Made by a program: the position numbers and the translations under genes. A stretch of DNA of 64,000 bases, taken from NCBI GenBank assembly GCA_041483895.1, contig JBGPGO010000007.1, positions 131,378-195,377 of the forward strand, in the 5' to 3' direction. The stretch is from Fimbriimonadia bacterium. Lineage in GTDB: Bacteria > Armatimonadota > Fimbriimonadia > Fimbriimonadales > JABRVX01. Each line of letters starts with the position of its first letter. Position 1 is the stretch's first letter. The notes under the pieces were generated by a model that was not told the DNA's origin, made no database searches, and saw only the letters and a program-made list of their open reading frames with translations. Below are positions 4,765-18,868 of this stretch, in pieces.

Positions 4765-6258
4765 TCACTTGGCCTCGGCCTGCGACTGATCCAGTGGTCC
4801 AGTCGGCTTCATCCCCCGCGTCATTCTCAGAATTACCAAATGCATCCAAACAAGGGAAATCAGAGCCAACATACTAAGGAATGCCCAGCAGGAAGTCCAA
4901 AGGCCGCTTGACTTCAACATGTACCCAAAGATGACGGGCAGGAAAAAGCCGCCGAGCCCGCCGATCACCCCGACCAGACCGCCAACGACCCCGACATCCT
5001 TGGGGAAATACTCTGGAATGTGCTTGTATACGGCAGCCATCCCGATTCCCATCGAGATACCGACAAGAAGCGCGAATATCGTAAAAATCCAGCGGTTCGC
5101 TTGGAAGTAAATTTGAGTCGTACCTCGCGCGAGAACTTCCCTCCGTTTCACCGTTTCCCCAATGGAAACGACAGGTTCCTGCCATGTCTGCAACTTCGGC
5201 AAGACAAGAAGCTGGTCATCGCGAAATCTAAGCGCTTGTGGAGGCCTTAGCGAGTAGGGTTTTTCACCAACCCTGACTTCGGACGCCGATACAAATGTGA
5301 CGGGTCCAGGCGAATCCGCCATCACCCCCTCGCCAGGCGAACTGATCTCCATCCTTGGCGCCGAAAGCAATAGAAATAGGACGACGCAAAAACTTAGCAC
5401 CCAATACATGGTCGTCCGCGCGCCGATCCTGTCCGAAATCCAACCGCCGAATGCACGGACCAACCCCGTGGGCAGGCTGAAACATGCCGCAAGAAATCCG
5501 GCGCCGGCAAGCGTCATGCCGTACACGTTTAGGTAATACGGGATGAGCCATTGTGAAAGAGCCACGAAGGCACCGAACAGCACAAAGTAGTACAGCCCAA
5601 AACGCCATACTCGAATGTCGCGCAGAGGGTGCAGCATCTGGCCGATTGTCTTTTGACCGGCCCCCTCAACTCGTTTTGGGATGGCCAGCAGGGCGAACAA
5701 AATCACAGTCGCCAGCAGCGCCCCCGCATAAATCTGGGGCAGCAACCGCCATGCGTCCACGTTCTGTCCATCCCGTGTGAGCGATTTCAACAATAAGGGC
5801 GCACCAATGCTCGTCAGAGCCGCTCCAATATTGCCGACGCCAAAAATCCCAAGCGCGGTGCCCTGTCTTTCCTTGGGAAACCAGACCGATGAATAAGCAA
5901 TTCCAACCGCGAAGGACGCGCCGCTCAACCCAAATGCCAATCCGCCGAGCATGAAGCCGGTGAAACTATTGGCGAAACCGGTCAAATACGCCCCAATGGC
6001 CGCAAGCAACATGACTCCAATGTAGACCGGCTTACCACCAAATCGGTCGGTGAGCATTCCAACCGGGAGGCGTAGAATCGATCCTGTCAAGACCGGTATC
6101 CCGATCAGCCAGCCCATTTGGCCCTTGTCCAAATGGAGAACCTGATGGTCAACGAGGAAGGTGATCAGCACGCCATACATTGTCCAGACGGCAAAGCAGA
6201 CGGTGAACGCGAATGTGTTCATGAAGAGGACGCGATTGGCCTGGCTTCGCTGGCTCAT
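4765..6258 (-). CDS. narK: MFS nitrate/nitrite transporter NarK/NasA type, with large loop insertion
   Basis: FMNTFAFTVCFAVWTMYG... and GWLIGIPVLTGSILRLPVGMLTDRFGGK are NarK-like, with 12 hydrophobic segments. Start chosen at ATG 6258 (MSQRSQ...). The longer ORF to 6306 would run through a regulatory palindrome. Confidence 0.8.
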   Translation of the reverse strand: MSQRSQANRVLFMNTFAFTVCFAVWTMYGVLITFLVDHQVLHLDKGQMGWLIGIPVLTGSILRLPVGMLTDRFGGKPVYIGVMLLAAIGAYLTGFANSFTGFMLGGLAFGLSGASFAVGIAYSSVWFPKERQGTALGIFGVGNIGAALTSIGAPLLLKSLTRDGQNVDAWRLLPQIYAGALLATVILFALLAIPKRVEGAGQKTIGQMLHPLRDIRVWRFGLYYFVLFGAFVALSQWLIPYYLNVYGMTLAGAGFLAACFSLPTGLVRAFGGWISDRIGARTTMYWVLSFCVVLFLLLSAPRMEISSPGEGVMADSPGPVTFVSASEVRVGEKPYSLRPPQALRFRDDQLLVLPKLQTWQEPVVSIGETVKRREVLARGTTQIYFQANRWIFTIFALLVGISMGIGMAAVYKHIPEYFPKDVGVVGGLVGVIGGLGGFFLPVIFGYMLKSSGLWTSCWAFLSMLALISLVWMHLVILRMTRGMKPTGPLDQSQAEAK

Positions 6259-6292
6259 GGCGCTATTGTCGACCCCGGCTGCAGAGACCGCT

Positions 6293-6306
6293 ATGATCAA
6301 GATCAT
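6293..6306 (-). promoter_or_regulatory. Candidate Crp/Fnr-type operator (ATGATCAAGATCAT; core TGAT-N4-ATCA)
   Basis: Inverted repeat ATGATC/GATCAT centred at 6299.5, which is 41.5 bp upstream of the narK ATG (6258). A -10-like GACAAT (complement of 6265-6270) sits between them. A Crp-family regulator is encoded 3 kb away. Confidence 0.4.
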
Positions 6307-6574
6307 ATTGCGTCGGCGGCCATGGCAATTCGCTCAGCAGTGCGTGACGTCGGGTTGGTCACCGGTTGTCTCCTCAACCGTAGATTTGTTACTTCGCGTC
6401 GAGGCCGCTATGACGTTCGTCATATCTTCGAAAAGGTTCCTCAGGGACAGCACGACCGGCTTGGTAGGTACCGCCCGTTATGGTCGTTGCCTCAGCAAGC
6501 GAATCCCCAATGAGGAGACCTCGTAGTAAGGGATTGAATCAACGCTCCTGAAACCTTCCAGTGGCACGATTTCT

Positions 6575-7831
6575 TTGGTAGAATGGGTCATGATCGGCAC
6601 AATTCTCGCGATCGCAACCTCAAGCTGCTTTTGTCAACTGCAGGGAGACGCGCTTCTCGACGACCTCTCGTACAAAGCGTTTCGCTATTTCTGGGAGCAG
6701 TCCAACGTCGCCACAGGTCTCACGAAGGACCGGGCGGCCAACCTCACCACGACCGATGGCTACAACGTGGCCAGCATCGCCGCAACGGGTTACTCCTTGG
6801 TAGCCTACGCGATCGGCGCGGATCGTGGCTGGATAGGGAAATCTTCCGCTCGGACCCGCGTCCGGCTCACGCTCCAATACTTGAACACCAGCGGGGCGAA
6901 AAAGAATGGCTGGTTTTACCACTTTGTCAACTGGCAGACCGGGCAGCGCGTTTGGAACAGCGAGGTTTCGTCCATCGACACGGCGATTCTGATTGCCGGA
7001 ATGTTGGTTGCGGAACGATACTTCGCCGACAGCCAAATTACAGCCAGCACGAATTCGATCTTAAAAGCAATCGACTGGCATTGGATGCTGACCGACGGCG
7101 GCGCGAAGCCCAATTCGCTTACGTTCTGTCATGGATGGACGCCCGAAAGCGGTTTCATACCATATCGCTGGGACACTTATTCGGAAGAGATGATGTTGTA
7201 TGTTCAAGCTTACGGCGCCTATCCGGCGTTACCGCTTGGTTGTTGGGCTGCGGTGTCAAAGCCGATGGTGACGTATGGCGGATATACTGTGATTTCCGGC
7301 GGACCGTTGTTCATGCACCAGATGTCCCATGGATTCTTGGATATCAAGGGGATAAAGCAAGGCTCGTACGACTATTGGGAGAATAGCAGGCAGGACACCT
7401 TGGCGAGTCGCCAATATTGCATCAACAATCCAAAGCATTACACTGGCTACGGTGCGAATTTTTGGGGACTTTCCGCAGGCGATACGCCGGACGGATACAT
7501 GGCGCTCGGCGCGCCAGGTTGGGGAAGCGATAACGGAACGATTATTCCGACGTCCGCGATCGCTAGCGTGATGTTCACCCCGACAGAAAGCAAGGCCGCT
7601 GCGGATTATATATACTCCTACCGGCCAGCTGCATATGGGCGATACGGCTTTAGCAACGGCATCAACCCATCGCGAAACTGGATCGATCCGGACGTGATTG
7701 GGATCGACCTTGGCATGATGCTCGTCGGCATCGCGAACTACAAGGATAATTTCGTTCACAAATGGTCGACAGCTCATCCCATCATCAAATCGGGAATCTT
7801 GCGCATGTTGTTGCTTACGAAAAAGTCGTAA
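6575..7831 (+). CDS. GH144-like (former DUF3131 / putative glucoamylase) endo-beta-1,2-glucanase family protein
   Basis: DDLSYKAFRYFWEQSNVATGLTKDR...ASIAATGYSLVAYAI...GWFYHF... recalls the PF10091/GH144 family. The TTG at 6575 or the ATG at 6590 could be the start. Confidence 0.6.
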   Translation: MVEWVMIGTILAIATSSCFCQLQGDALLDDLSYKAFRYFWEQSNVATGLTKDRAANLTTTDGYNVASIAATGYSLVAYAIGADRGWIGKSSARTRVRLTLQYLNTSGAKKNGWFYHFVNWQTGQRVWNSEVSSIDTAILIAGMLVAERYFADSQITASTNSILKAIDWHWMLTDGGAKPNSLTFCHGWTPESGFIPYRWDTYSEEMMLYVQAYGAYPALPLGCWAAVSKPMVTYGGYTVISGGPLFMHQMSHGFLDIKGIKQGSYDYWENSRQDTLASRQYCINNPKHYTGYGANFWGLSAGDTPDGYMALGAPGWGSDNGTIIPTSAIASVMFTPTESKAAADYIYSYRPAAYGRYGFSNGINPSRNWIDPDVIGIDLGMMLVGIANYKDNFVHKWSTAHPIIKSGILRMLLLTKKS

Positions 7832-8689
7832 TCACTTCAGCCCGCTGGTCACGAACCCGCGGACAAAATATCTCTGACCCAGCAGGAACAGTAGGATGAG
7901 CGGCAACATCACGAGCACAGAACCCGCCATGATTAAATGCCACTGCTCGCTGTTAAGAGTCTGATAGGATCGCAACCCTAATTCCAGCGTCTGTTTGTCA
8001 GGATCATTCAAATAGAGCAGCGGTCCAAGAAAATCGCGCCAGCTCCAGATGAAGGAGAAGAGCCCGACCGTTGCCAGCGCCGGGCCGGACAGCGGCATGA
8101 TCAATCGCCAGAAGATTGTAGAATGCGATGCGCCGTCCAGCATGGCGGCCTCTTCCAATTCGCGCGGGATGGTCGCAAAAAACTGGCGCAGCATGAAGAT
8201 GTTGAACGCGCCGCCACCCAGCCAAGACGGCACGATCAGCGGATAGAACGTATCCACCCAGTGTAGATATTTGTAGAGAACATAGGTGGGAATCATCGTG
8301 ACTATCCCTGGGAGCATCATGGTACTGAGCAATAGGATGAATAAGCGATCCCTTCCTCGAAAGCGTAACCGCGCAAAGGCGTATGCCGCGAGGCTGGAAG
8401 TGATCAGTGTGCCGATCGTGGAGAGTGTGGCAATCAGAGCGCTGTTGCGGAAGAGAAGGCTAAACTTCACGTTCGGGTTGTCCAGCACTTGTCGAAAATT
8501 GTCCCACGACGCCATCTTTGGCCAAGCCCAAGCCGATGTCGTCGCAATCTCCGCCGGTGTCTTATAGGCCGTCGAGAGCATGATGTAGAATGGCACCAGC
8601 ATGCCAACCGCGCCCGCGACAAGCACCAGCCACACGATAGCATGCGACGTCCGTTTCGCCGTCCGCGCTTTGCGGTCTAGAGAATTCAC
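7832..8689 (-). CDS. Carbohydrate ABC transporter permease (MalG-like)
   Basis: Six TM segments and an EAA loop (ELEEAAMLDGASHSTIFWRLIMPLSGPAL). A 4-nt overlap with the upstream gene indicates coupling. Confidence 0.85.
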   Translation of the reverse strand: MNSLDRKARTAKRTSHAIVWLVLVAGAVGMLVPFYIMLSTAYKTPAEIATTSAWAWPKMASWDNFRQVLDNPNVKFSLLFRNSALIATLSTIGTLITSSLAAYAFARLRFRGRDRLFILLLSTMMLPGIVTMIPTYVLYKYLHWVDTFYPLIVPSWLGGGAFNIFMLRQFFATIPRELEEAAMLDGASHSTIFWRLIMPLSGPALATVGLFSFIWSWRDFLGPLLYLNDPDKQTLELGLRSYQTLNSEQWHLIMAGSVLVMLPLILLFLLGQRYFVRGFVTSGLK

Positions 8690-11130
8690 TTCGAGTCCGC
8701 CTCATAATACACCCACTTGCTCAGTCGGAACTGCAGCAGCGTGAATATCAATATGATGACAAACAGCACCCAAGCGAGCGCGGAGGCGTACCCCATTCGA
8801 AGCCCGTCGAACGCCTGTCGGTACAGATGCAGCATATAGAACAGCGTCGCATCGTTGGGGCCGCCGCTCGTCATCACGAACGATTGCGTGAACACTTGAA
8901 AGCTGCCAATCACTCCCGTTACCAAGCAGAAGAACAGCGCCGGGCTAAGCAACGGGATCGTAACGGCTCGGAACCGTTTCAGTGCGCCCGCTCCATCTAC
9001 CACGGCCGCTTCGTAGTACTCCTGCGGAATATTCTGCAGCCCGGCCAATAGGATCACCATGCCGCCACCGATACCCCACAACGACATGATGATCAATCCG
9101 GTTAATGCCGTGCTCTCATTGCCTAACCAGTTGATCTGCTGTCCGGCAGGAGACAAAGGCCGCAAAAGCGACGCGAGTCCAAGAAAGTCGCCCTTTCCAT
9201 TTGCGCCATAGATGATTGTGTTCAGCAGGCCGCCTTCCGGTTGGAAAATCCGTCTCCAGATCAGCGATGCCGCCACCACGCTCGCAAGGGATGGCAAATA
9301 GTAAACGGCGCGAAATAATGCCATTCCTCGCACCTTCGCATTGAGCAGCAGCGCCAGCATCAGCGAGCCGAAAAGGCCAAGCGGGACGGCAACCAGGGTG
9401 TAAACGAAGGTCACTCGCAATGAAAGCCAGAACCGAGGATCGGCGGTGAGGGCATCGGCGTAGTTCGCCGCACCGCGCCATCTTGCGGGCTGAATGATGT
9501 CCCAATCGGCCATGCTCATGAAAAACGAAAGAGCCATCGGACCGAATGTGAACACAACGATCCCAATCAGCCATGGAGCGATGAACCAATACGCGCTGCG
9601 ATTCTCTCGCTTCTCGCGATTGGAGTACCGCACGCCTCGCTCCGGCCAATAGACCCACAGGAGGATCCCCGACGCCAGCAAGAGCCCACCCAGGATCGCG
9701 GGCCCCCATGCAAACGGGGGAAGGCGCTCCTGTTTTCGCAGCGCGTCGAGGCGGGCCTGGGCCTCCGCGGTTCCCTCGTGCAGCGCCTGCTGTGCCGACT
9801 TCGTGCCGAGCCAGATAGTATCCAGGCGAGAAGTGAGCAATCCGTACACTTCAGGCCAAGCGTCACCCGAGGGGGCGAAGTGCACATACGGGATCGCCTC
9901 GTCCGTCACGATCCGATGTGCGGGATAGCGCATTTCAACCGGTGTGTTCGGTCCCGGAATCCAAACGTCTGATAGGGCGATGCGGCGGATCGCCGGCTGG
10001 CCCAGCCCCGACTCCGCCAGGTTCTTCATCCCTTGCGGGCCGGCGAGCCATTGGACGAGCAGCCAGGCCTCCCAAGGGTGCTGGGTTGAGCTTGCGATGG
10101 AATAGCCGGAGCCGCCGGTCGGGAATCGCCTCGTCCCATCCTTGTATGCCGGAAAAAGAGTGATGTCGTAATCGAAAAATTCCTTCGTCCCGGGCTTCAG
10201 AAACTTGCGAAGGTTGGGAACTTCCCAAATTCCGGTCTGGTACATTGCCACCTTTTGCGATACGAACAGCATGGTGGCGTTGGTCTGCATCACGCTCGAC
10301 ATTTCAGTCGGGCTCGGCTCAAATCCGTACTTGAATATCAGGTCTGCCGCCAAACCGTACCCGCGCCGCATCGCGGGGCTATCGAATAGGATCTTGGTCG
10401 GGTTCTCATAATCATCGGTGAACCTTCCTCCCAATGAAAGTGAGAAGCAGTCCGCCGTCAGGCTCGGCCATCCGGGGCTGTATCCCCACTGAATCGTTTT
10501 GCCCTCTTGGTTCTTTTTGGTGAGCTGCCGCATAACCCATAGGAAATCCTTGTCCCGCAATTCCGGCCGCACCTTATCATCCCATGTCCAGCTTCCATCC
10601 GGATACGGAATCCCCGCTTCGTCAAACAGCCGCTTGTTGTAGTAGATCAGGCCGATGGGCGCGATGTCGCGAGGAAGAACGTACAGCCGGCCTTTCCGCC
10701 GGTGCGCGCGGACGATCGGTTCATAGTATTGTTTGATGTCGAATCCCGGTGTTTTCGCGATAAAACCGTCCAGGGGCAGCAGCGCCTTTCGCTTGGCGAA
10801 TTGCTGGAACCGCTCGAAGCCCATCATGAGGACGTCCGGTGCGACGTTGGCGGCATACTGTGCCAGCATCTTCTGCTGATACATACCGTAGTCCACGTTC
10901 TCCAGCTTCACTTTTATGTAGGGGTAGCGCTGTTCAAACTCCGCGATGGTCTTGCGTTGCACGCTCAGGGCTTGGTCGCCTTCCCAGGACGCCAATCGGA
11001 GGACGATTGGGTTCGGCGCCGCCACTCCATGGCCAGCTGCAAGCAAGAAAAGGAGGTAGATGACAGTCAGGCGGAACACTTTGCTTCGCGCGACATACGT
11101 CACGCGATTAAGGCTGGTTCCGTGCTTCAC
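8686..11130 (-). CDS. Fusion protein: extracellular sugar-binding protein (family 1 SBP) + MalF-like ABC permease
   Basis: The N-terminal ~480 aa have a signal peptide plus an SBP_bac_1-like sequence (LRLASWEGDQ...FEQRYPYIKVKLENVDYG...). This is followed by a TM anchor and a permease with an EAA loop (YYEAAVVDGAGALKRFRAVTIPLLSP). One uninterrupted ORF. Confidence 0.75.
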   Translation of the reverse strand: MKHGTSLNRVTYVARSKVFRLTVIYLLFLLAAGHGVAAPNPIVLRLASWEGDQALSVQRKTIAEFEQRYPYIKVKLENVDYGMYQQKMLAQYAANVAPDVLMMGFERFQQFAKRKALLPLDGFIAKTPGFDIKQYYEPIVRAHRRKGRLYVLPRDIAPIGLIYYNKRLFDEAGIPYPDGSWTWDDKVRPELRDKDFLWVMRQLTKKNQEGKTIQWGYSPGWPSLTADCFSLSLGGRFTDDYENPTKILFDSPAMRRGYGLAADLIFKYGFEPSPTEMSSVMQTNATMLFVSQKVAMYQTGIWEVPNLRKFLKPGTKEFFDYDITLFPAYKDGTRRFPTGGSGYSIASSTQHPWEAWLLVQWLAGPQGMKNLAESGLGQPAIRRIALSDVWIPGPNTPVEMRYPAHRIVTDEAIPYVHFAPSGDAWPEVYGLLTSRLDTIWLGTKSAQQALHEGTAEAQARLDALRKQERLPPFAWGPAILGGLLLASGILLWVYWPERGVRYSNREKRENRSAYWFIAPWLIGIVVFTFGPMALSFFMSMADWDIIQPARWRGAANYADALTADPRFWLSLRVTFVYTLVAVPLGLFGSLMLALLLNAKVRGMALFRAVYYLPSLASVVAASLIWRRIFQPEGGLLNTIIYGANGKGDFLGLASLLRPLSPAGQQINWLGNESTALTGLIIMSLWGIGGGMVILLAGLQNIPQEYYEAAVVDGAGALKRFRAVTIPLLSPALFFCLVTGVIGSFQVFTQSFVMTSGGPNDATLFYMLHLYRQAFDGLRMGYASALAWVLFVIILIFTLLQFRLSKWVYYEADSK

Positions 11131-13504
11131 AGCTCGTTGCCGATACGGAGTGGATTGCGCCGGAACCGGCAGAGGTCAGCAAATTTCCATCGAGCGGCTC
11201 GCCATCCACATGGAGTTGCAGCGCTTTCTCCAACCCGGTGATGTTGAATCGTATGTCGAACCGTTCTCCTCGGAATCGCCGCATCACGCGGTAGGTCTCC
11301 CAGGCGCCCGGCTCGATGAGCAGGCCTTTTCGAGTCGCCCGCACCCCGCACAGCCAATCGAGCGCGATCCGGTACATCCAGGCGGAAGAGCCCGTGTACC
11401 ATGTCCAGCCGGCTCTGCCCTCATTTGGCGAGTCAGGTCCATCCACGTTTCCTGGCATGACATAGGGTTCGGCGGCGTACCGCCCTGCATCCTCCGCCGC
11501 TCGGCAAGGCGGAGACATTGACCGGTAAATGGAGTAGGCGGTTTCCATTTCGCCCATCATGGCGAAGGCTTGAATCGCCCACGTGGAAGCATGGCTGTAC
11601 ACCCCGCCATTCTCCCGAAGTCCGGGCGCGTATCGCGTTATGTAGCCGAGGGACGGATCGACGGAGTCAAACGCCGGCGCGAGGAGCAGCGCCCCGTACG
11701 GCTTGACCAGACGTTCGCGGACCGACTCCATGGCTGTCCGTACCCGCTCCGGGGTACCGCTGCCGCTGATTGCGGCCCAGGTCTGCGGATTGAGGAAGAT
11801 GGAACCCTCTTTGCACTCGTGGCTGCCGAACGGCCTCCCGTCGTCGCGGAAACCGGCGACGTACCAATCGCCATCCCATCCGTGCTTGTTGATCGCTGTG
11901 AAGAGCTCTTCGTTTGCCAAATCGTAACCCGCAACGAGGTCGCAGCGCCCCAATTCTTTGAGCGTTGGAGTGAGCCGCCGAAGAATGTCGACAAGGAACA
12001 TCGCCAGCCAGACGCTTTCCCCTTTCCCGTCGATCCCCGCATGGCTGAGGCCGTCGTTCCAGTCGCCGGCTCCGATCAGCGGCAATCCCCGCGCCGATCG
12101 TCTTTCCAGAGCGCGATCGATGCCGCGCAGAACATGATCCAACACCGTTCCCTTCGCCCCGAATCGCTGTGTGGTTCTCGATAGGAAACGGCATGGTTCC
12201 TCGGCAAAGTCGAGGTCGTTCGACTCATCAAGATAGGCGAGGAATCCATAAGCGGGCCACAAACTGGTGTCGCTGTGGCGGCTTTCGGAGAATATCTCGG
12301 TACCCGGATGCCACCAGTGCCGGACACCGCCGTCTTCATACATGGCTTCCAGGTGCGTCCGCAACTGCTGCTTGGTCTTCTCCGGATGCAAGGAGCACCA
12401 AAGCAGGCTGTCTTGCAGTTGATCCCGGTACCCGTATGCGCCGCCCTGCTGATAGTAGCCGCATCGAGCCTGCAGGCGGCCGACAATCGTTTGATATTTC
12501 ATCCAGTGGTTGGTCAGTAGGTTCACGCCTTCGTCCGGAGTTTCGATGAACGTCTCTTGCAACAACCGACTCCAATGGTCCTTCAGCCGGTCCAATTCTC
12601 GCTGTGCCTGGCAGATCGTCCATCCCTCGCTCGCCTGCTCGGCCGCGGCACGGTCGGTTTCCGCTCCCAGCACAAATAAAAGAGTCTTCGTTTCGCCCGG
12701 TCCTAAACTCAATGGGACAATCACTGAGGCGATTGGGTCTTGCCACCGTGTTCCAGCACAGGAGGGATCTTGCCGTCGAAGCGAGTCGGGGTTTGCAAGG
12801 CTTCCACCCGGACCGATGAAGGAGGCTTTGCTGGTGTTCCACGCGACGGACTCCGCTCCCTTGACGGCGTGAAATGCGAATAGCTCGCAATCCTCCGGTT
12901 CCCGAATGTTCTCCTTCATCCCCGGGTGCTTCCAAGCCAAGCATCGATCGGATGCGCAGGAGGTTTCTATGAACAGCCGATGGAATTCCCGGTGCCATTC
13001 GCCGACAGCTCCCAGAAACCAATCGACATAGGAAGCGACGCGCAAGGAGCGCGTTTCGGCGCCAATGTTCGTCACCTCTAACAGCCAGAGTTCGCAGTTG
13101 GCTTCGAGAGGGACGAAGCAGGTCTGGCGGGACCGAATGCCGAACAGCTCACGCTCGAATATCGTGTACCCGAGCCCGTGGGTCACCGCTTCAATATCTG
13201 CCCGCAGCCGCGTCGGCCCCCAGGTTGTTGACCAAGGTGGGCCCGGCTGGTCGAGGTCCTGGAGGTAGATATAACGGCCGTAGGCGTCGGCAACCAGATC
13301 TTGCTCCCACCTGGTGATTCGGTGGAGCTGGCAATTGTCCAGCCAGGAGAACCCGCCTCCCGCCTGGCTCACGATGGCGGAATACCGTCCATTGCTGAGA
13401 ATATTGACCCAAGGCGTCGGGGTTCGGGGATCGGTGATAATGAACTCTCGGCCGTCTGGGGAGAAAAATCCGAATTCGTTGGGCATGACACCCTGGTGAG
13501 GCAT
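11108..13504 (-). CDS. GH94-family glycan phosphorylase (cellobiose / chitobiose / beta-1,2-oligoglucan phosphorylase-like)
   Basis: N-terminus FGFFSPDGREFIITDPRTPTPWVNILSNG and central QQGGAYGYRDQLQDS are GH94-like. Length is about 800 aa. The start is uncertain (ATG 13504, ATG 13486 or TTG 13564). Confidence 0.75.
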   Translation of the reverse strand: MPHQGVMPNEFGFFSPDGREFIITDPRTPTPWVNILSNGRYSAIVSQAGGGFSWLDNCQLHRITRWEQDLVADAYGRYIYLQDLDQPGPPWSTTWGPTRLRADIEAVTHGLGYTIFERELFGIRSRQTCFVPLEANCELWLLEVTNIGAETRSLRVASYVDWFLGAVGEWHREFHRLFIETSCASDRCLAWKHPGMKENIREPEDCELFAFHAVKGAESVAWNTSKASFIGPGGSLANPDSLRRQDPSCAGTRWQDPIASVIVPLSLGPGETKTLLFVLGAETDRAAAEQASEGWTICQAQRELDRLKDHWSRLLQETFIETPDEGVNLLTNHWMKYQTIVGRLQARCGYYQQGGAYGYRDQLQDSLLWCSLHPEKTKQQLRTHLEAMYEDGGVRHWWHPGTEIFSESRHSDTSLWPAYGFLAYLDESNDLDFAEEPCRFLSRTTQRFGAKGTVLDHVLRGIDRALERRSARGLPLIGAGDWNDGLSHAGIDGKGESVWLAMFLVDILRRLTPTLKELGRCDLVAGYDLANEELFTAINKHGWDGDWYVAGFRDDGRPFGSHECKEGSIFLNPQTWAAISGSGTPERVRTAMESVRERLVKPYGALLLAPAFDSVDPSLGYITRYAPGLRENGGVYSHASTWAIQAFAMMGEMETAYSIYRSMSPPCRAAEDAGRYAAEPYVMPGNVDGPDSPNEGRAGWTWYTGSSAWMYRIALDWLCGVRATRKGLLIEPGAWETYRVMRRFRGERFDIRFNITGLEKALQLHVDGEPLDGNLLTSAGSGAIHSVSATSCEARNQP

Positions 13505-13628
13505 TCGAGTCTCAATTCTTGGAGGAAGTTGGTCAATTCTACCAGAACTGAAACCTTTCTGCAACCCGCATTTTTCCTTAAGTCATAGAAAATACCTACC
13601 CCGAAAGGTTGCTGTGTGGCACAAGTTG

Positions 13629-13648: not shown

Positions 13649-13666
13649 TGCTGAAAGGCTTCAGCA
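13649..13666. promoter_or_regulatory. Candidate LacI-family operator palindrome TGCTGAA-aggc-TTCAGCA
   Basis: Perfect 7-bp inverted arms sit just downstream of the candidate -10. A LacI-family regulator is encoded at 16296-17330, and the related sequence TGCTGAAACCTTTCA lies at 17334-17348. Confidence 0.3.
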
Positions 13667-13687: not shown

Positions 13688-15406
13688 ATGAACGTCATGA
13701 AGACGCGTACCCTGCTTTGTGCGGCTGTTGGCATCTGTCTGGTGGCAACAGGCTCCGCGCAAAGGTTTTCATCAATCTACAAGTCCGAAAGGTACTTCAA
13801 CGACAACCCCTTATCGGTCCTCAAGTCGACCGACCAATATCCGAAAAGTTTGAAGATGGACGAAAGCAACCTCAATGTCAATATCAATCGGCACGTCTAT
13901 TACTTTTCGGAAGACGGCGGCGCCAATCCGTCGTTATTCAACAACACCGAGTATTGGAATATTTCAACGGATGTCACGATCAATCATGATCCTGTGGTTT
14001 ACCGGCAGGAAGCGGGAATCTACTTCAACTACAACGGTTGGGACGGCCAGATGATGGTGGCCTCCGACGGCGAAGTCGCTGTCTTCGGCTACATTCTTCC
14101 GTTCCACACATTCGGCAACATTTATACAGAAGGCACCACGATCCGAATCGGGATTCGCTATTTCAACGATCCCAATGACGGACTCAACAAGCTGGAGTAT
14201 TACGCCGGGAACAACAGCGTGGTGTACACACCCGGTAACACGGAACAGGGTTTGCTGGACGGCACGAAGCTAGGCTTCTACGCTCAGGACCGGGGCGATG
14301 CAGGCAACCCGACCGAGACTCACATTCGATTCAGCCACATCGTCGCGGGGTTAGATCCCGATCCGTTCGCCAATGTCCAGATCAACGAGAGAGTTTTCAA
14401 CGACACCCCGGGCAGTGTTTTGACAACAACGAACAGCTATCCGGACAGCATTCAGTTCGCCGAAACGGGACTCAACAATGGTCTCAATCGGCACCTTTGG
14501 TACTTCTCTCCGAACGGAGTTGACGCGAGTCTGTTCGGCAACACGGAGTATTGGAACGTCGCGATGGATGTGACAATCCAGCCGACGCCGAGCGGACCGA
14601 GACGCCAGGAAGCCGGCATGTACTTCAACTACAACGGCTGGGACGGCCAGTTCATGGTGGCCTCCGATGGGGAGATAGCCATATTTGGCTACATTCTGCC
14701 GTTCTACAAGTTCAAGACGACGTACGCGGTCGGCACGACGATCACCATAGGGATGCGCTACTTCAACGATCCCTGTGATGGCAAGAACAAGCTGGAATAC
14801 TACGCAGGCAACGAATCCAAGGTCGTCACACCGGACAACGGCGAACAAGGACTGTTGACCGGAACCAAATTGGGCGCGTATTGCCAGCATGGCGGCAGCC
14901 TGGCCGAGCCGCACGACGTGACCTCGACCTTTAGCCATATCGTCGGCGTCCACTGGTTCAATTCGACGGCCTCGTCAATCGGTGGCGCGGTATCGCTCGA
15001 CCTGTTCTCCGGCGATCCAAGCATACTTTCCGGTGAGCTCGAGCTCCGAGATCCGGACACCAATGCAGTTCTCAACACCTATGGCGTCACCCTGGAAAGC
15101 GATGGCACGTACACGGTTCCTTCCGTCGTTCCCGGCACATACGACGTCGCCTTCAAGCTGGACCACTTCCTAAGAGAAGTGAGTTCCTCGGTCGAAATTG
15201 GCGCCGGCTGCGCAACGGCGGACTTCAATCAAATCAACGGAGATGCGGACGGCAACAATCAGGTCGCCCTCCCGGACCTCAACCAACTGTTCATCAACTT
15301 CGCTTCCACCACCGAACCCGGTTCGGATCTGGATGGAAGCGGACAAGTGGACCTGGGAGACATCAATGCCGTCTTCCTGAACTTTGCCATGGTTGGAGCG
15401 CCTTAG
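13688..15406 (+). CDS. Secreted protein: 2x ~200-aa unrecognised domain + beta-sandwich + dockerin-like C-terminus
   Basis: Signal peptide (MKTRTLLCAAVGICLVATGSAQ). Internal duplication between aa ~34-233 and ~234-420, with shared blocks NRH.YYFS, TEYWN, RQEAG.YFNYNGWDGQ.MVASDGE.A.FGYILPF, RYFNDP.DG.NKLEYYAGN and FSHIV. C-terminal paired DxDGxxxVxxxDLN motifs. An alternative start is the ATG at 13697. Confidence 0.8.
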   Translation: MNVMKTRTLLCAAVGICLVATGSAQRFSSIYKSERYFNDNPLSVLKSTDQYPKSLKMDESNLNVNINRHVYYFSEDGGANPSLFNNTEYWNISTDVTINHDPVVYRQEAGIYFNYNGWDGQMMVASDGEVAVFGYILPFHTFGNIYTEGTTIRIGIRYFNDPNDGLNKLEYYAGNNSVVYTPGNTEQGLLDGTKLGFYAQDRGDAGNPTETHIRFSHIVAGLDPDPFANVQINERVFNDTPGSVLTTTNSYPDSIQFAETGLNNGLNRHLWYFSPNGVDASLFGNTEYWNVAMDVTIQPTPSGPRRQEAGMYFNYNGWDGQFMVASDGEIAIFGYILPFYKFKTTYAVGTTITIGMRYFNDPCDGKNKLEYYAGNESKVVTPDNGEQGLLTGTKLGAYCQHGGSLAEPHDVTSTFSHIVGVHWFNSTASSIGGAVSLDLFSGDPSILSGELELRDPDTNAVLNTYGVTLESDGTYTVPSVVPGTYDVAFKLDHFLREVSSSVEIGAGCATADFNQINGDADGNNQVALPDLNQLFINFASTTEPGSDLDGSGQVDLGDINAVFLNFAMVGAP

Positions 15407-15431
15407 GCGTCACCATACTTCGCTAGTGACT

Positions 15432-15468
15432 AGCCCCCGGCCATGAAGCAATGGCTGGGGGCTTTCTT
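15432..15468. terminator. Bidirectional hairpin terminator between convergent genes
   Basis: AGCCCCCGGCCAT-gaagca-ATGGCTGGGGGCT forms a 13-bp stem with one G-T pair, followed by TTCTT. It lies between the stop at 15406 (+) and the stop at 15533 (-). Confidence 0.6.
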
Positions 15469-15532
15469 GAGCCTGGAATACGAACGAACCCCGGCGGATA
15501 CCGCCGGGGTCGTCGGACCGGACGCTGCGAAT

Positions 15533-16279
15533 CTAGAATGGAAGGGAATTACAGAATGTGTCGAGCCAGGGAATCGATGTCGGCGAGCCGTTGATATCGT
15601 AGACCCATTGGCCGCGCGTGTATTGCCACATGTTTTCCGCATTATCCGGCTGGCAGGTCAGTCGGAGAGGGATGTTTTTCGAGTGGCCATCCATGAAGAG
15701 TGTGACCATGGAGCGATCATCACGGCGGCCGCCACCCCAGTTCGGGATGTTCCAACCGCCTTTTCCGTTGTAGAGATACTCAATCCATGGACCGTAGTCC
15801 GGGTACACGTCCTTGTTTTCCGCAACGACAATCGCTTTCGCCGGTTCGTGGACGGACCGAGCGGTGTAATTGGCCACGTCCTGCCAATTCCCGGTTTTGA
15901 AGAACGGTCTGTAGTAAAAGTAACCGCGATAGAAGCGTGGTTTTACCGGGTTTGTCATAACGGCTTGCTCATCGAAGATGCGCGCGCCCGGATTCAGAGG
16001 ATCCTTGAAAACTTCGGCGCTTTTCGCGTACGGCTGCAAACCGTGCTTCCAACTCCGGCGCCCGTCATCGTCTCGGATCTTGAACATGACGCCGTTCTGA
16101 TCGTCCACGTACATCTGAATTGCGGTGCCGATCTGCTTCATGTTCGAGATGGTAACTGTTCCCATCGCGGAAACCCGCGCGCTGGCAAACACTGGGAAAA
16201 GAATGGCTGCCAGAATGGCAATGATAGCGATTACCACGAGAAGCTCGATGAGAGTAAAGGCCTTTTTATTCAATTTCAT
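15533..16279 (-). CDS. Prepilin-type N-terminal cleavage/methylation domain protein, DUF1559-like pseudopilin
   Basis: N-terminus MKLNKKAFTLIELLVVIAIIAILAAILFPVF is a class III signal/methylation motif. The C-terminal part has the ...LFMDGHS... pattern seen in the DUF1559 family. Confidence 0.85.
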   Translation of the reverse strand: MKLNKKAFTLIELLVVIAIIAILAAILFPVFASARVSAMGTVTISNMKQIGTAIQMYVDDQNGVMFKIRDDDGRRSWKHGLQPYAKSAEVFKDPLNPGARIFDEQAVMTNPVKPRFYRGYFYYRPFFKTGNWQDVANYTARSVHEPAKAIVVAENKDVYPDYGPWIEYLYNGKGGWNIPNWGGGRRDDRSMVTLFMDGHSKNIPLRLTCQPDNAENMWQYTRGQWVYDINGSPTSIPWLDTFCNSLPF

Positions 16280-16295
16280 TCGATCACCTCAAGAC

Positions 16296-17330
16296 TTAGC
16301 TTGTATAAAGTTCGGGACGGCTGGTCGAGCCCCGCACGTCAATCGCGAGCGGGAAGACGACCTGCAAGTGGTCTACGGGTTGTTTATGAACAATCGAGGC
16401 CAGCAGGATGGTTGCCCGCCTCGCCATATCTCGAATCGGTTGACGAATACTGGTTAGTTTCGGGTCGACCCGATCGCATGAATCCGTGCTGTCAAACCCC
16501 ACGATTGACACGTCCTTGGGAACCGCCAGACCCAGTTCGCACAGTAGCCGCAGGCAGTTGAACGCCACGTCATCGGACCAGACAAAAAGCGCCGTCGGTC
16601 GGTCCTTGCGGTTCATCAAATCGATGAGCGCCCCAGTGTTCGAAGAAGGGGTTTCCATCGTGACAACCATCTCCGGATCGAACGGCAACGACGCCTCCTC
16701 AAGGGCGCTTCGAAAGCCATGCAGGCGATCCGTGGAACTCCGCGACCCGTGCGGTCCCCGAATCATACCAAGCCGCTTGTGCCCAAGTGAAATCAAGTGT
16801 TCGGCCGCCAGCCGGCCGCCAGAATAGTTATCGGCATCCACAAAGGGTACGTCCGGATCGTCGGTCCGCGTGAAAAACAGAACGCTCGGAAACTTGCGGT
16901 TCAACAGGTCCAGCTGTGTTTGATCGTCGACGTCTCGCAGAACCAAAGCGCCGTCCACACGGCCATCGGAGATCACATCGGCTTCGCTCCCCGCGCCGTT
17001 TACGGCTTTCGTGTGGAGCAGCAGGTCCATCCCAGTCTCCACGCATCCCTCGCACACGCCGTGCATCGCCTCGGCAATGAAATTCGACCACGATGAAAAG
17101 TAGGTGGCATACTGAAAAACGACGGCGATCGTATCGGTCTTCTGTTTCAAAAGCATCTTTGCCAACGCGTTGGGCCGATAGCCTAACTCGCGGGCGACCT
17201 CAATCACCCGTTCTTCCGTGCCGGCACTGATGCGCGCCTCTGTTGCCCTGCCGTTCAGGACGTAGCTGACGGTGACCTTGCTGACCCCGGCAAGGCGTGC
17301 CACATCCTCAATCGTATTTCTCTTCTCCAT
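16296..17330 (-). CDS. LacI-family transcriptional regulator
   Basis: N-terminal HTH TIEDVARLAGVSKVTVSYVLNG plus a periplasmic-binding-protein-like sugar-sensor domain. Size is 344 aa. Confidence 0.9.
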   Translation of the reverse strand: MEKRNTIEDVARLAGVSKVTVSYVLNGRATEARISAGTEERVIEVARELGYRPNALAKMLLKQKTDTIAVVFQYATYFSSWSNFIAEAMHGVCEGCVETGMDLLLHTKAVNGAGSEADVISDGRVDGALVLRDVDDQTQLDLLNRKFPSVLFFTRTDDPDVPFVDADNYSGGRLAAEHLISLGHKRLGMIRGPHGSRSSTDRLHGFRSALEEASLPFDPEMVVTMETPSSNTGALIDLMNRKDRPTALFVWSDDVAFNCLRLLCELGLAVPKDVSIVGFDSTDSCDRVDPKLTSIRQPIRDMARRATILLASIVHKQPVDHLQVVFPLAIDVRGSTSRPELYTS

Positions 17331-17499
17331 CGTTGCTGAAACCTTTCACCTAAAGTGTAACATACTGTCGGGTCGTGCCGTTATTCTCTGTAGCGATTCC
17401 GAATAAACACGTAATTATACCAGGCTATCTCCCGATAGTTACGAGATGGTCCTGGAGCTACAATCAGTGCTGAATGGTTTCAGTTTGGAGAATTGAGCG

Positions 17500-17700
17500 A
17501 TGAGAAAAGAAATTCCAGCGAAAACGATGGCAGTCATCGGCGTTTTGATCGTCGCCGTCTTGGGAATCCTCGTTTGGCAAGTTTTCTTCAAGTCGGGGCC
17601 TACGAGTCCAGCAGAGATCGGAATCGGCGCGCCTGCGCTTCCGGGTGGCGGCACCGTCTCTCCCGGCAGTGGCAGCAACCCGAACGGGTCTGGAAAGTAA
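17500..17700 (+). CDS. Small single-pass membrane protein (66 aa), Gly/Pro/Ser-rich tail
   Basis: ATG preceded by GGAG. One TM helix (MAVIGVLIVAVLGILVWQVFF). Sits upstream of the MoxR operon. No family recognised. Confidence 0.4.
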   Translation: MRKEIPAKTMAVIGVLIVAVLGILVWQVFFKSGPTSPAEIGIGAPALPGGGTVSPGSGSNPNGSGK

Positions 17701-17854
17701 AGCGAGTCAACCGGCCGTTACTATGGGCTTGGCCCTAGGCTCCTTGGCGGAGAGTCGTTCAATCGAATCTCCCATTCGGTTGGCACGGCACTTAACTTCG
17801 TTCGTCAAAGGTATTGTAGAATGCCGGGTATTGGTTGTAATCAGGGGAGGGGAC

Positions 17855-18868
17855 ATGGACGAGCAGGCTCACTTGGCGCAGTTAGACCAGATTCGACAGC
17901 AGTATGAGACGCTGCTCGAGGAAGTTCACAAAGTTATCATTGGCCAAGACGATGTTGTCCGCCATCTGGTGAGCGCGCTCTTTGCGAAGGGACATTGTAT
18001 CGTCATTGGCGTGCCCGGCCTTGCGAAAACCCTTCTTGTGAAAACCCTGGCCCAATGCCTTTCCTGGGACTTCAAACGCATTCAGTTCACTCCCGACCTG
18101 ATGCCCAGCGACATCATCGGCACGGAGATTCTGGACACCGACCCGGCAAGCGGCGGACGCTCTCTTCGTTTCGTCCGGGGTCCGGTCTTCGCCAATGTCA
18201 TCCTCGCTGACGAAATCAACCGCACTCCGCCGAAAACTCAAAGCGCCCTTCTGGAGGCGATGCAGGAGTATGCCGTTACCGTTGCGGGCCACACGATGCC
18301 GCTCGACCCGCCGTTCTTCGTCGTCGCCACGCAAAACCCGATCGAGCAGGAAGGCACCTATCCATTGCCCGAAGCCCAGCTTGACCGGTTTATGTACAGC
18401 CTCTACATCGATTACCCCACCGCCGAGGAAGAGGAAGCGATCGCCGAAAGCACGACGACGAACGAAGTGCCGGAAGCAGGGACCGTGTTCACCAAGGAGG
18501 AACTGCTGAACGCCCAGCGGTTGGTGCGTGAGATTCCCGTCTCGCCGCACGTAGTCAAATACGCCGTCTCCCTCGCCCGTGCCAGCCGGCCCGGTTCTCC
18601 GGAAGCGCCATCGATGATCAAGAAATACTCGCAATGGGGCGCCGGTCCGCGCGCCGCCCAATACCTGCTGCTGGGAGGCAAGGCATTTGCCGTCATGCAA
18701 GGCAAACCAACGCCGACCGCCGCCGACCTGCGCCAGATCGCCCCGCTGGTTCTGCGCCACCGAATCATCCCCAACTACGCCGCGGTTGCCGACGGAATCA
18801 CCGCCGCACACCTCGTCCAGGACCTTTTGCACAATGTGCGGGAGCCCGCGTATGCAACCGAAGGATGA
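17855..18868 (+). CDS. moxR: MoxR-family AAA+ ATPase
   Basis: ATG 17855 follows AGGGGAGGGGA. Walker A GVPGLAKT and Walker B VILADEINR. ...GQDDVVRHLVSALFAKGHCIVIG... is typical of MoxR (AAA_3). The upstream 70 codons of ORF 17645 have no support. Confidence 0.9.
   Translation: MDEQAHLAQLDQIRQQYETLLEEVHKVIIGQDDVVRHLVSALFAKGHCIVIGVPGLAKTLLVKTLAQCLSWDFKRIQFTPDLMPSDIIGTEILDTDPASGGRSLRFVRGPVFANVILADEINRTPPKTQSALLEAMQEYAVTVAGHTMPLDPPFFVVATQNPIEQEGTYPLPEAQLDRFMYSLYIDYPTAEEEEAIAESTTTNEVPEAGTVFTKEELLNAQRLVREIPVSPHVVKYAVSLARASRPGSPEAPSMIKKYSQWGAGPRAAQYLLLGGKAFAVMQGKPTPTAADLRQIAPLVLRHRIIPNYAAVADGITAAHLVQDLLHNVREPAYATEG

Follow-up and report, generated by a model that had tools for sequence, protein, structure and literature searches.

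Beta-1,2-glucans, among them the osmoregulated periplasmic glucans and the cyclic glucans made by Brucella, Agrobacterium and rhizobia, are important in infection, symbiosis and osmoadaptation and are hard to detect. The closest described gene clusters are the SGL/SOGP clusters of the Nakajima group, which combine an enzyme of glycoside hydrolase family 144 (GH144), a GH94 enzyme, an ATP-binding cassette (ABC) importer with a Sopn-binding solute-binding protein (SBP) and a LacI-type regulator (PMC12102758, PMC11842490), and a 2025 review lists the ABC SBP as the only beta-1,2-glucan binder in sgl clusters (PMC11842490). A literature search yielded no family of carbohydrate-binding modules (CBMs) or lectins dedicated to beta-1,2-glucan, the only proteins reported to recognise these polymers being the ABC SBP and some immune C-type lectins; binding of sophorose by CBM92 is weak, the KD measured with the three-site protein as a whole being 882 uM, compared to 202 uM for gentiobiose (PMC11039641). 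Here we describe a two-repeat protein encoded at 13688..15406 on the forward strand of a 64,000-nucleotide (nt) stretch of DNA (hereafter the window) from a Fimbriimonadia bacterium of the Armatimonadota (assembly GCA_041483895.1, contig JBGPGO010000007.1, positions 131,378 to 195,377). The components by which a beta-1,2-glucan utilisation locus is defined, GH144, GH94, an importer and a regulator, are all found in the window, and from these gene families the region around the gene is predicted to be such a locus (PMC12102758, PMC11842490). The repeat of the protein belongs to a large, unannotated extracellular domain family, and on balance we lean towards the view, from its sequence context and predicted structure, that this is a non-catalytic module which is displayed at the cell surface and binds beta-1,2-glucan in partnership with GH144, and thus in effect a new CBM or lectin family. 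In the papers found by the search, no such domain is tied to GH144, beta-1,2-glucan, PEP-CTERM or surface glycan-binding proteins.

The gene was taken from the list of open reading frames (ORFs) and encodes 572 amino acids (aa), within which hidden Markov model (HMM) envelopes delimit repeat A at aa 34-226 (13787..14365) and repeat B at aa 234-425 (14387..14962), both on the forward strand as are all features of the gene given below. A preliminary description of the window, made without database searches, had proposed a tandem duplication here, and the envelopes lie within 12 nt of the boundaries it had drawn, with all of the shared blocks that it quoted being found in the protein (NRH-YYFS, TEYWN, RQEAG-YFNYNGWDGQ-MVASDGE, RYFNDP, GEQGLL-GTKLG and FSHIV). 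Local alignment of aa ~34-233 with aa ~234-420 gave a BLOSUM62 score of 596, compared to a mean of 36 (standard deviation 7) and a maximum of 61 for shuffled sequences (n=200). The repeats, of ~193 aa each, are ~61% identical in protein and 64% identical in DNA, and of the 23 most conserved positions of the domain family 22 carry the same residue in both, including all of the polar ones, the sole difference being A98 replaced by I. The duplication is thus real and old, and the retention of the conserved residues by repeat B, together with the tandem arrangement, is typical of multivalent binding modules. Orthologs that are 56-58% identical to the window protein occur in metagenome-assembled genomes (MAGs) of Fimbriimonadia/Fimbriimonadales. 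Repeat A of the window protein is 65-66% identical to repeat B of the orthologs (P0005, L006) and 60-63% identical to their repeat A, while repeat B shows the reverse pattern, being slightly nearer to the orthologs' repeat A. As the repeats match the opposite repeats of the orthologs better, the duplication predates the split of the orthologs, and either a swap of repeat order or partial homogenisation of the repeats may have followed.

The protein had also been described as secreted and dockerin-tailed, the second of which claims was only partly borne out. A putative signal peptide was recognised by eye at aa 1-24 (13688..13759; MNVMKTRTLLCAAVGICLVATGSA, followed by QRF), and in most of about 150 relatives the domain likewise comes directly after the signal peptide, starting at residue ~27-45, which supports secretion. 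The C-terminal tail (aa 514-565, 15227..15382) has two DxDxxG..D calcium-loop/helix repeats visible by eye and a weak PDB match to the dockerin 2jnk (E=0.15), but it reached the score of no Pfam dockerin model, PF00404 included, so that the dockerin assignment is sub-threshold for this protein; visibly similar tails match PF00404 in 16 of 75 relatives, with a best E of 1.7e-8. The window protein lacks a PEP-CTERM tail (TIGR02595: VPEP motif, transmembrane helix and basic cluster). Between the repeats and the tail lies a putative small immunoglobulin (Ig)-like beta-sandwich spacer resembling CarboxypepD_reg (aa ~464-510, 15077..15217), for which PF13620 gave E=2e-4 with the whole protein and 1.3e-5 with the fragment, both under the gathering score; a spacer-type PF13620 domain was also matched in 4 relatives. 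Just 3' of the stop codon is a terminator-like GC-rich hairpin followed by TTTCTT (15432..15463), the folding energy given by RNAfold being -33.4 kcal/mol over the whole of 15407-15480, and as this strong hairpin and TTTCTT come right after the stop codon the gene looks monocistronic, although a consensus terminator scan of the region called none, the T-run being too short. A sigma-70 promoter scan upstream of the gene, which is uninformative for the host phylum, returned nothing.

The preliminary description had been unable to assign the repeat to any family, and the database searches agree. Over aa 34-425 there was no match in Pfam-A 2025 or NCBIfam r20, and searches of Pfam, NCBIfam and the PDB with single sequences gave noise only. 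When 41 domain sequences were compared with Pfam at E<=10 no family recurred, and there was no match to the models for legume lectins (PF00139), polysaccharide lyase family 7 (PL7), GH16, GH11, GH12 or CBMs; a profile of the same 41 sequences matched no PDB sequence. Matches to FabA/FAS dehydratase at aa 307-366 (E 0.016-0.7) were rejected as being far under the cut-offs, as were NCBIfam matches to NF038129, floc_PepA and others, which are under the cut-offs and align to the PEP-CTERM tail only. A word-indexed homolog search with one repeat as the query found 4 relatives only and underestimates the family: an exhaustive phmmer search of 1.84 billion representatives (at 50% identity) gave 184 sequences at E<=1e-3, 65 of them at E<=1e-10, and a profile search of 5.8 billion clusters gave 888 at E<=1e-5. 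One entry in the phmmer list, P0046 (2073 aa, repetitive), was discarded as spurious since it matched only through a short IRFHSV-like repeat. Wherever the source gives a name, the members are called "hypothetical protein", and the named sources are MAGs of Fimbriimonadia, Armatimonadota, Verrucomicrobia and Ca. Polarisedimenticolia. The repeat therefore represents a large unannotated extracellular domain family, each domain being ~195 aa long.

Most commonly, a member of the family consists of one domain followed by a PEP-CTERM anchor. Tallied by sequence pattern, the C-terminal endings of 154 sequences were of PEP-CTERM type in 79 (TIGR02595 matches were obtained too), dockerin-like in ~16, of type IX secretion system (T9SS) or FlgD-Ig-like type in 7 (about 7-10), a WGxxKxxYR motif in 10, and other or truncated in 42. 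A Pfam scan of 75 members gave 16 Dockerin_1, 12 PEP-CTERM, 7 FlgD_ig and 6 Por_Secre_tail matches, and NCBIfam matches on 75+10 relatives were confined to PEP-CTERM or T9SS tails. Such interchangeable surface anchors on one N-terminal domain suggest that the domain is displayed outside the cell. Ten members without a PEP-CTERM tail (P0004, P0077, P0079, P0080, P0089, P0109, P0114, P0131, P0147 and P0149) share an extreme C-terminal ...(S/T)TWGxxKxxYR, which may be an unrecognised sorting or anchoring signal. Tandem doubling of the domain is also seen in an unrelated T9SS-tailed subgroup (P0013, P0015, P0016, P0021 and P0030), so that the Fimbriimonadia and the T9SS-tailed group make at least two lineages in which the domain was duplicated. 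A short metagenome contig carries two tandem family genes or domains (L019:3-653 and 1034-1723), a further independent duplication.

Isolated repeat A was modelled with AlphaFold2 (AF2) from a 41-sequence alignment as a 14-strand all-beta sandwich with a predicted local distance difference test score (pLDDT) of 95 and a predicted template modelling score (pTM) of 0.90; this replaced a first model from a 6-sequence alignment, which had a pLDDT of 65 and unreliable fold matches. Foldseek comparison of the model with the PDB returned solely remote jelly-rolls of the concanavalin A (ConA) type, with a best E of 3.5e-5 and ~10% identity. The top TM-scores of all PDB entries belong to 2z42, 1uai and 2zac (TMq 0.60-0.61 over ~190-210 columns), with PL7 lyases overall at TMq 0.57-0.61 and a root-mean-square deviation (rmsd) of ~5 A; legume lectins gave TM-scores of 0.40-0.51, rmsd 8-10 A, E ~1e-4 and a Foldseek probability of 1.0, and the only CBM-labelled structure within the top 50 matches was 5ly8 (TMq 0.40). 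The model thus predicts a ConA-like beta-sandwich with no close structural relative among solved structures, in keeping with the lectin- or CBM-type fold guessed from composition in the preliminary description. About 15 polar residues are near-invariant in the family (R35, N38, D39, N67, H69, S74, D76, E108, E129, Y146, Y158, S177, Y198, Q200 and N217, in protein numbering).

The genes around the domain were compared across relatives reached by several routes: the orthologs in Fimbriimonadia/Fimbriimonadales MAGs, a genome scan with two short peptide patterns (8 loci), a metagenome scan with one 9-residue pattern (29 loci) and exact look-ups of 11 further family members. Loci were collapsed at >=90% identity of the domain protein and kept if >=5 kb of DNA was available, leaving 30, of which those with names come from MAGs of Armatimonadota/Fimbriimonadia, Phycisphaerales/Planctomycetota and Verrucomicrobiota, the others being untyped metagenome contigs. 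GH144 and/or GH94 lies within 10 kb of the domain gene in 26 of these 30 loci, and GH144 in 23. With one or two GH144 genes per genome, a random gene would by a rough estimate be within 10 kb of one ~1% of the time, so the association of the domain with GH144/GH94 is far beyond chance. All 8 loci of the genome scan (Fimbriimonadales 1, Phycisphaerales/Phycisphaeraceae 2, Verrucomicrobiota/Verrucomicrobiia 4 and "Bifidobacterium" 1) have a GH144 and/or GH94 homolog within this distance, and on five short contigs (L029, L034, L037, L041 and L042) GH144, GH94 or LacI is immediately adjacent. The contig titled "uncultured Bifidobacterium sp." (L011, CAYHFK010000064.1) carries a Verrucomicrobia-like pair of domain and GH144 genes and is probably misbinned.

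Two arrangements of the genes recur. In the canonical operon, which the Phycisphaerales MAG loci share with many untyped metagenome contigs, a LacI gene is divergent from a series transcribed in one direction that runs GH144, domain, GH94, pseudopilin, a small protein of ~116 aa, SBP and two permeases, and many relatives have a LacI gene beside the locus. A bare convergent pair of domain and GH144 genes is usual in Verrucomicrobiota MAG loci and is also present on two untyped contigs, while in the ortholog loci the LacI, pseudopilin, GH144, SBP-permease, permease, 1034-aa protein and ortholog genes follow one another in the same direction. In one Armatimonadota protein (P0098/P0154) the domain is fused N-terminally to GH144 (PF10091) with a dockerin tail, a classical CBM architecture; this protein has an NCBI twin named "glucoamylase family protein", and its gene adjoins LacI and is divergent from pseudopilin and GH94 genes; P0132 looks like a truncated second fusion of this kind.

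In the window itself the two-repeat gene is divergent from its neighbour, an 818-aa GH94 glycoside phosphorylase (11108-13564, reverse strand; PF17167 and PF06165), beyond which lie the ABC genes and a GH144 gene of the endo-beta-1,2-glucanase family (6575-7831, forward strand; PF10091 "Glycoamylase", E=2.4e-58), the PDB matches of which include XCC2207 and the endo-beta-1,2-glucanase 5gzh. A LacI-family regulator is encoded nearby (16296-17330, reverse strand; Pfam). The divergent placement and the nearby LacI gene had been noticed earlier and stand, but GH144 had been counted in one operon with GH94 and the ABC genes and is on the opposite strand from them. The proposed link of the protein with a glycan locus is supported by the neighbourhoods, by the fusion of the domain with GH144 and by a shared operator-like motif. 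This 14-bp palindrome-like motif, CTGAAACCTTTCAG, has 5 matches in the window, with one mismatch each, against 0.38 expected, a count that was reached in 0 of 100 shuffles, and all five sites are at or just upstream of gene starts within the glucan locus. They lie upstream of GH144 (6548-6561), towards GH94 in the divergent intergenic region (13548-13561), 24-37 nt upstream of the ATG of the two-repeat gene (13651-13664, where the palindrome reads CTGAAAGGCTTCAG), just upstream of the ATG of LacI (17336-17349) and upstream of a small ORF next to LacI (17470-17483). Among the orthologous loci, L001-L004 and L006 have such a motif 32-45 nt upstream of the ortholog gene, and L001-L004 have one just upstream of LacI as well, L006 starting too close to tell. 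The LacI regulator at 16296-17330 probably uses the motif as its operator, and the sharing of the motif by these genes, the two-repeat gene included, supports co-regulation by LacI without proving it.

The lectin-type fold, the CBM-like architectures, the interchangeable anchors, the partnership with GH144 and the shared motif together favour reading the domain as a binding module. As expected of a CBM it is a discrete module predicted to fold independently, as in the AF2 model of an isolated repeat, and it occurs alone, doubled or fused; it is found within a carbohydrate-active enzyme in P0098/P0154, though the window protein itself is not such a case, and it belongs to no existing CBM family as judged by Pfam CBM models, PDB sequences and profiles and the top 50 Foldseek matches. 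Several features weigh against this reading. The conservation of the polar residues is above that of most CBM families and resembles an active or metal site, and the nearest structural neighbours by TM-score are enzymes, the PL7 lyases, not CBMs. The domain might instead be catalytic, forming a new beta-jelly-roll enzyme family that acts on beta-1,2-glucan in series with GH144, where it might open cyclic glucans, be exo-acting, act as a transglycosylase or strip succinyl or phosphoglycerol substituents. Cyclic or substituted glucans might in that event be opened or trimmed before GH144 acts, by means of E108 and E129, which are kept in 115 and 110 of 118 domains respectively; N-x-H and Y-x-Q pairs are placed on beta-strands, the gene is often inside the operon between GH144 and GH94, and fusions of two catalytic domains exist in nature. 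Even so we regard catalysis as unlikely, since the tandem copies and the N-terminal attachment to GH144 are CBM-like architectures, H69 is replaced by Asp in 11 of the 118 domains and the Pfam searches at E<=10 gave none of the PL7, GH16, GH11 or GH12 families. The N-x-H, R-x-E and G-x-Y-x-Q strands of the domain resemble the PL7 motifs Q-x-H, R-x-E-x-R and G-x-Y-x-Q, but their order differs from that in PL7, which also counts against a catalytic role. Membership of PL7 was rejected on substrate chemistry and for want of a profile match, beta-1,2-glucan having no uronate so that beta-elimination of the PL7 type is chemically impossible on its backbone, and was kept only as a lead for the catalytic alternative. 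Nor is an additional enzyme obviously needed, as GH144 is reported to cleave beta-1,2-glucans (PMC12102758, PMC11842490). It is accordingly doubtful that the domain is the first beta-1,2-glucan enzyme family outside the (alpha/alpha)6 "SGL clan".

The constancy of GH144 as a neighbour, the most frequent of all and often alone with the domain gene in a bare convergent pair in Verrucomicrobiota, would also fit a domain that binds protein in place of glycan, serving as a tether or partner that docks or regulates secreted GH144 as a cohesin-like stand-in. The fusion in P0098 would point the same way by the Rosetta-stone logic for interacting proteins, as would the fact that the domain protein carries the anchor. 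We think this improbable, more so than catalysis, because the ConA-like fold and the lectin neighbours favour sugar binding, some GH144 partners are themselves anchored (a T9SS tail in L016, a dockerin in P0098), and three loci (L007, L045 and L046) have GH94 and ABC genes with no visible GH144, a point that contig ends limit. Finally, most members are small PEP-CTERM proteins, which are a poorly understood envelope class, and the domain could be a generic surface or adhesin domain of the Planctomycetota-Verrucomicrobiota-Chlamydiota (PVC) group and Armatimonadota, its association with the loci arising from sampling or hitch-hiking. Two further points tell against a glucan-binding role: the loci were sampled by patterns of the window subfamily or by top profile score and not randomly across the family, and the link has exceptions, four of the 30 loci (L014, L017, L039 and L051) lacking GH144/GH94 within 10 kb. 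We nevertheless hold the generic explanation to be very improbable, as the association spans at least three named phyla with varied gene orders and anchors, is accompanied by a gene fusion and a shared regulatory motif, and stands at 26 of 30 loci against the roughly estimated ~1% for a random gene.

If the domain does bind beta-1,2-glucan, the family would serve bacterial beta-1,2-glucan utilisation loci as a dedicated accessory, with the two tandem copies in the Fimbriimonadia bacterium giving avidity, the Ig-like spacer holding the repeats off the cell and the dockerin-like tail tethering the protein, while most relatives would present a single copy tethered by a PEP-CTERM or T9SS tail. At the cell surface, linear or cyclic beta-1,2-glucan would be captured by the protein and handed to the exported GH144 endo-glucanase; the adjacent ABC system would then take up the sophoro-oligosaccharides that GH144 releases, and cytoplasmic GH94 would phosphorolyse them. 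The neighbouring LacI repressor may control the whole set, including the apparently monocistronic two-repeat gene, via the shared 14-bp palindrome. Were this to hold, the domain would be the first beta-1,2-glucan-specific CBM or lectin, of use as a probe for a polymer that is hard to detect and for enzyme engineering; were the domain instead an enzyme, it would bring a new activity to the beta-1,2-glucan pathway. At least 888 clusters of "hypothetical proteins" gain a name-worthy domain from this analysis, and a recurrent operon architecture (GH144, domain, GH94, pseudopilin, small protein and ABC genes) is defined in phyla whose glycan uptake is poorly understood.

The remaining genes of the window locus are in part those of the canonical operon. 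Upstream of the two-repeat gene, on the reverse strand, are a major facilitator superfamily (MFS) transporter (4765-6306), an ABC permease (7832-8689) and an 814-aa SBP-permease fusion (8686-11130; SBP_bac_1 and BPD_transp_1), all assigned by Pfam. The fusion is also present in the Fimbriimonadia relatives L001 and L006, and homologs of the ABC importer genes come after GH94 in canonical operons. The window GH94 is nearest in the PDB to the Cgs phosphorylase domain, with no chain named 1,2-beta-oligoglucan phosphorylase among its matches at E<=1e-10, and the enzyme may belong to an uncharacterised GH94 subgroup that has sophoro-oligosaccharides as its substrates. Since homology is seen only from about residue 26 onwards, the true start is probably downstream of the annotated TTG at 13564. 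In the closest relatives the place of GH94 is occupied by a 1034-aa protein (L001:6767-9871 and its equivalent in L006) with CBM11-like, F5/8 type C and six-hairpin glycosidase-like regions, which could provide an alternative hydrolytic route for imported or surface oligosaccharides. Downstream of the two-repeat gene is a pseudopilin-like protein with an N-terminal methylation motif (15533-16279, reverse strand; PF07963), of which there are homologs in L001-L006 and more distant ones in canonical operons; a pseudopilin-like protein with weak SBP_bac_10/DUF1559 similarity recurs at L015:9501-10674 and in L007, L008, L020/21, L024, L031, L036, L043, L045 and L046. In the canonical operon it is accompanied by the ~116-aa protein, which is small and of membrane type and is encoded between GH94 and the SBP gene. 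Directly 3' of the fifth operator-like motif is a 66-aa small ORF with one hydrophobic helix and a Gly/Pro/Ser-rich tail (17500-17700, forward strand), located between the LacI gene and a MoxR-type ATPase gene (17645-18868); its product is not similar to the ~116-aa protein of the canonical operon.

Among known systems, the PL7 alginate/glucuronan lyases share with the domain a jelly-roll of similar size and have the top TM-scores, but they differ in having ~10% identity to it, an rmsd of ~5 A and no Pfam PL7 match, and in the genomic context of the domain, which is that of a neutral beta-glucan and not of a uronate polymer. Legume lectins and the concanavalin A superfamily share its predicted general fold class, and its conserved Asp/Asn/Glu/His cluster could form a metal site as theirs does; unlike them, it is bacterial and anchored, has no PF00139 match and aligns to them with TM-scores of 0.51 at most and ~10% identity. 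The SGL/SOGP clusters have in common with the loci described here the GH144, GH94, importer and LacI-type components, whereas the domain, the pseudopilin and the ~116-aa protein are not reported there in the literature searched, and the window GH94 differs in being nearest to the Cgs phosphorylase domain and having no 1,2-beta-oligoglucan phosphorylase chain among its PDB matches. Compared to the beta-sandwich or ConA-like CBMs (CBM4, 6, 11 and 35), the domain lacks any Pfam CBM or PDB chain match, has its best TM-score (0.61) to lyases, is mostly a stand-alone anchored protein and not appended to an enzyme, and has as its candidate ligand beta-1,2-glucan, for which the literature searched holds no dedicated CBM family; like them, it is a discrete secreted beta-sandwich of ~200 aa which occurs in tandem copies, N-terminal to a GH in P0098, and is encoded within glycan-utilisation loci. 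The surface glycan-binding proteins (SGBPs) of the SusE/SusF type from Bacteroidota polysaccharide utilisation loci (PULs) have no homology to it, and its anchors are PEP-CTERM, dockerin or T9SS tails and not lipid, its loci use ABC importers and not SusC/D, and its hosts are Armatimonadota, Planctomycetota and Verrucomicrobiota. The proposed principle alone would be the same, that of a non-catalytic, surface-tethered and often multi-domain binder encoded next to an endo-acting enzyme and an importer.

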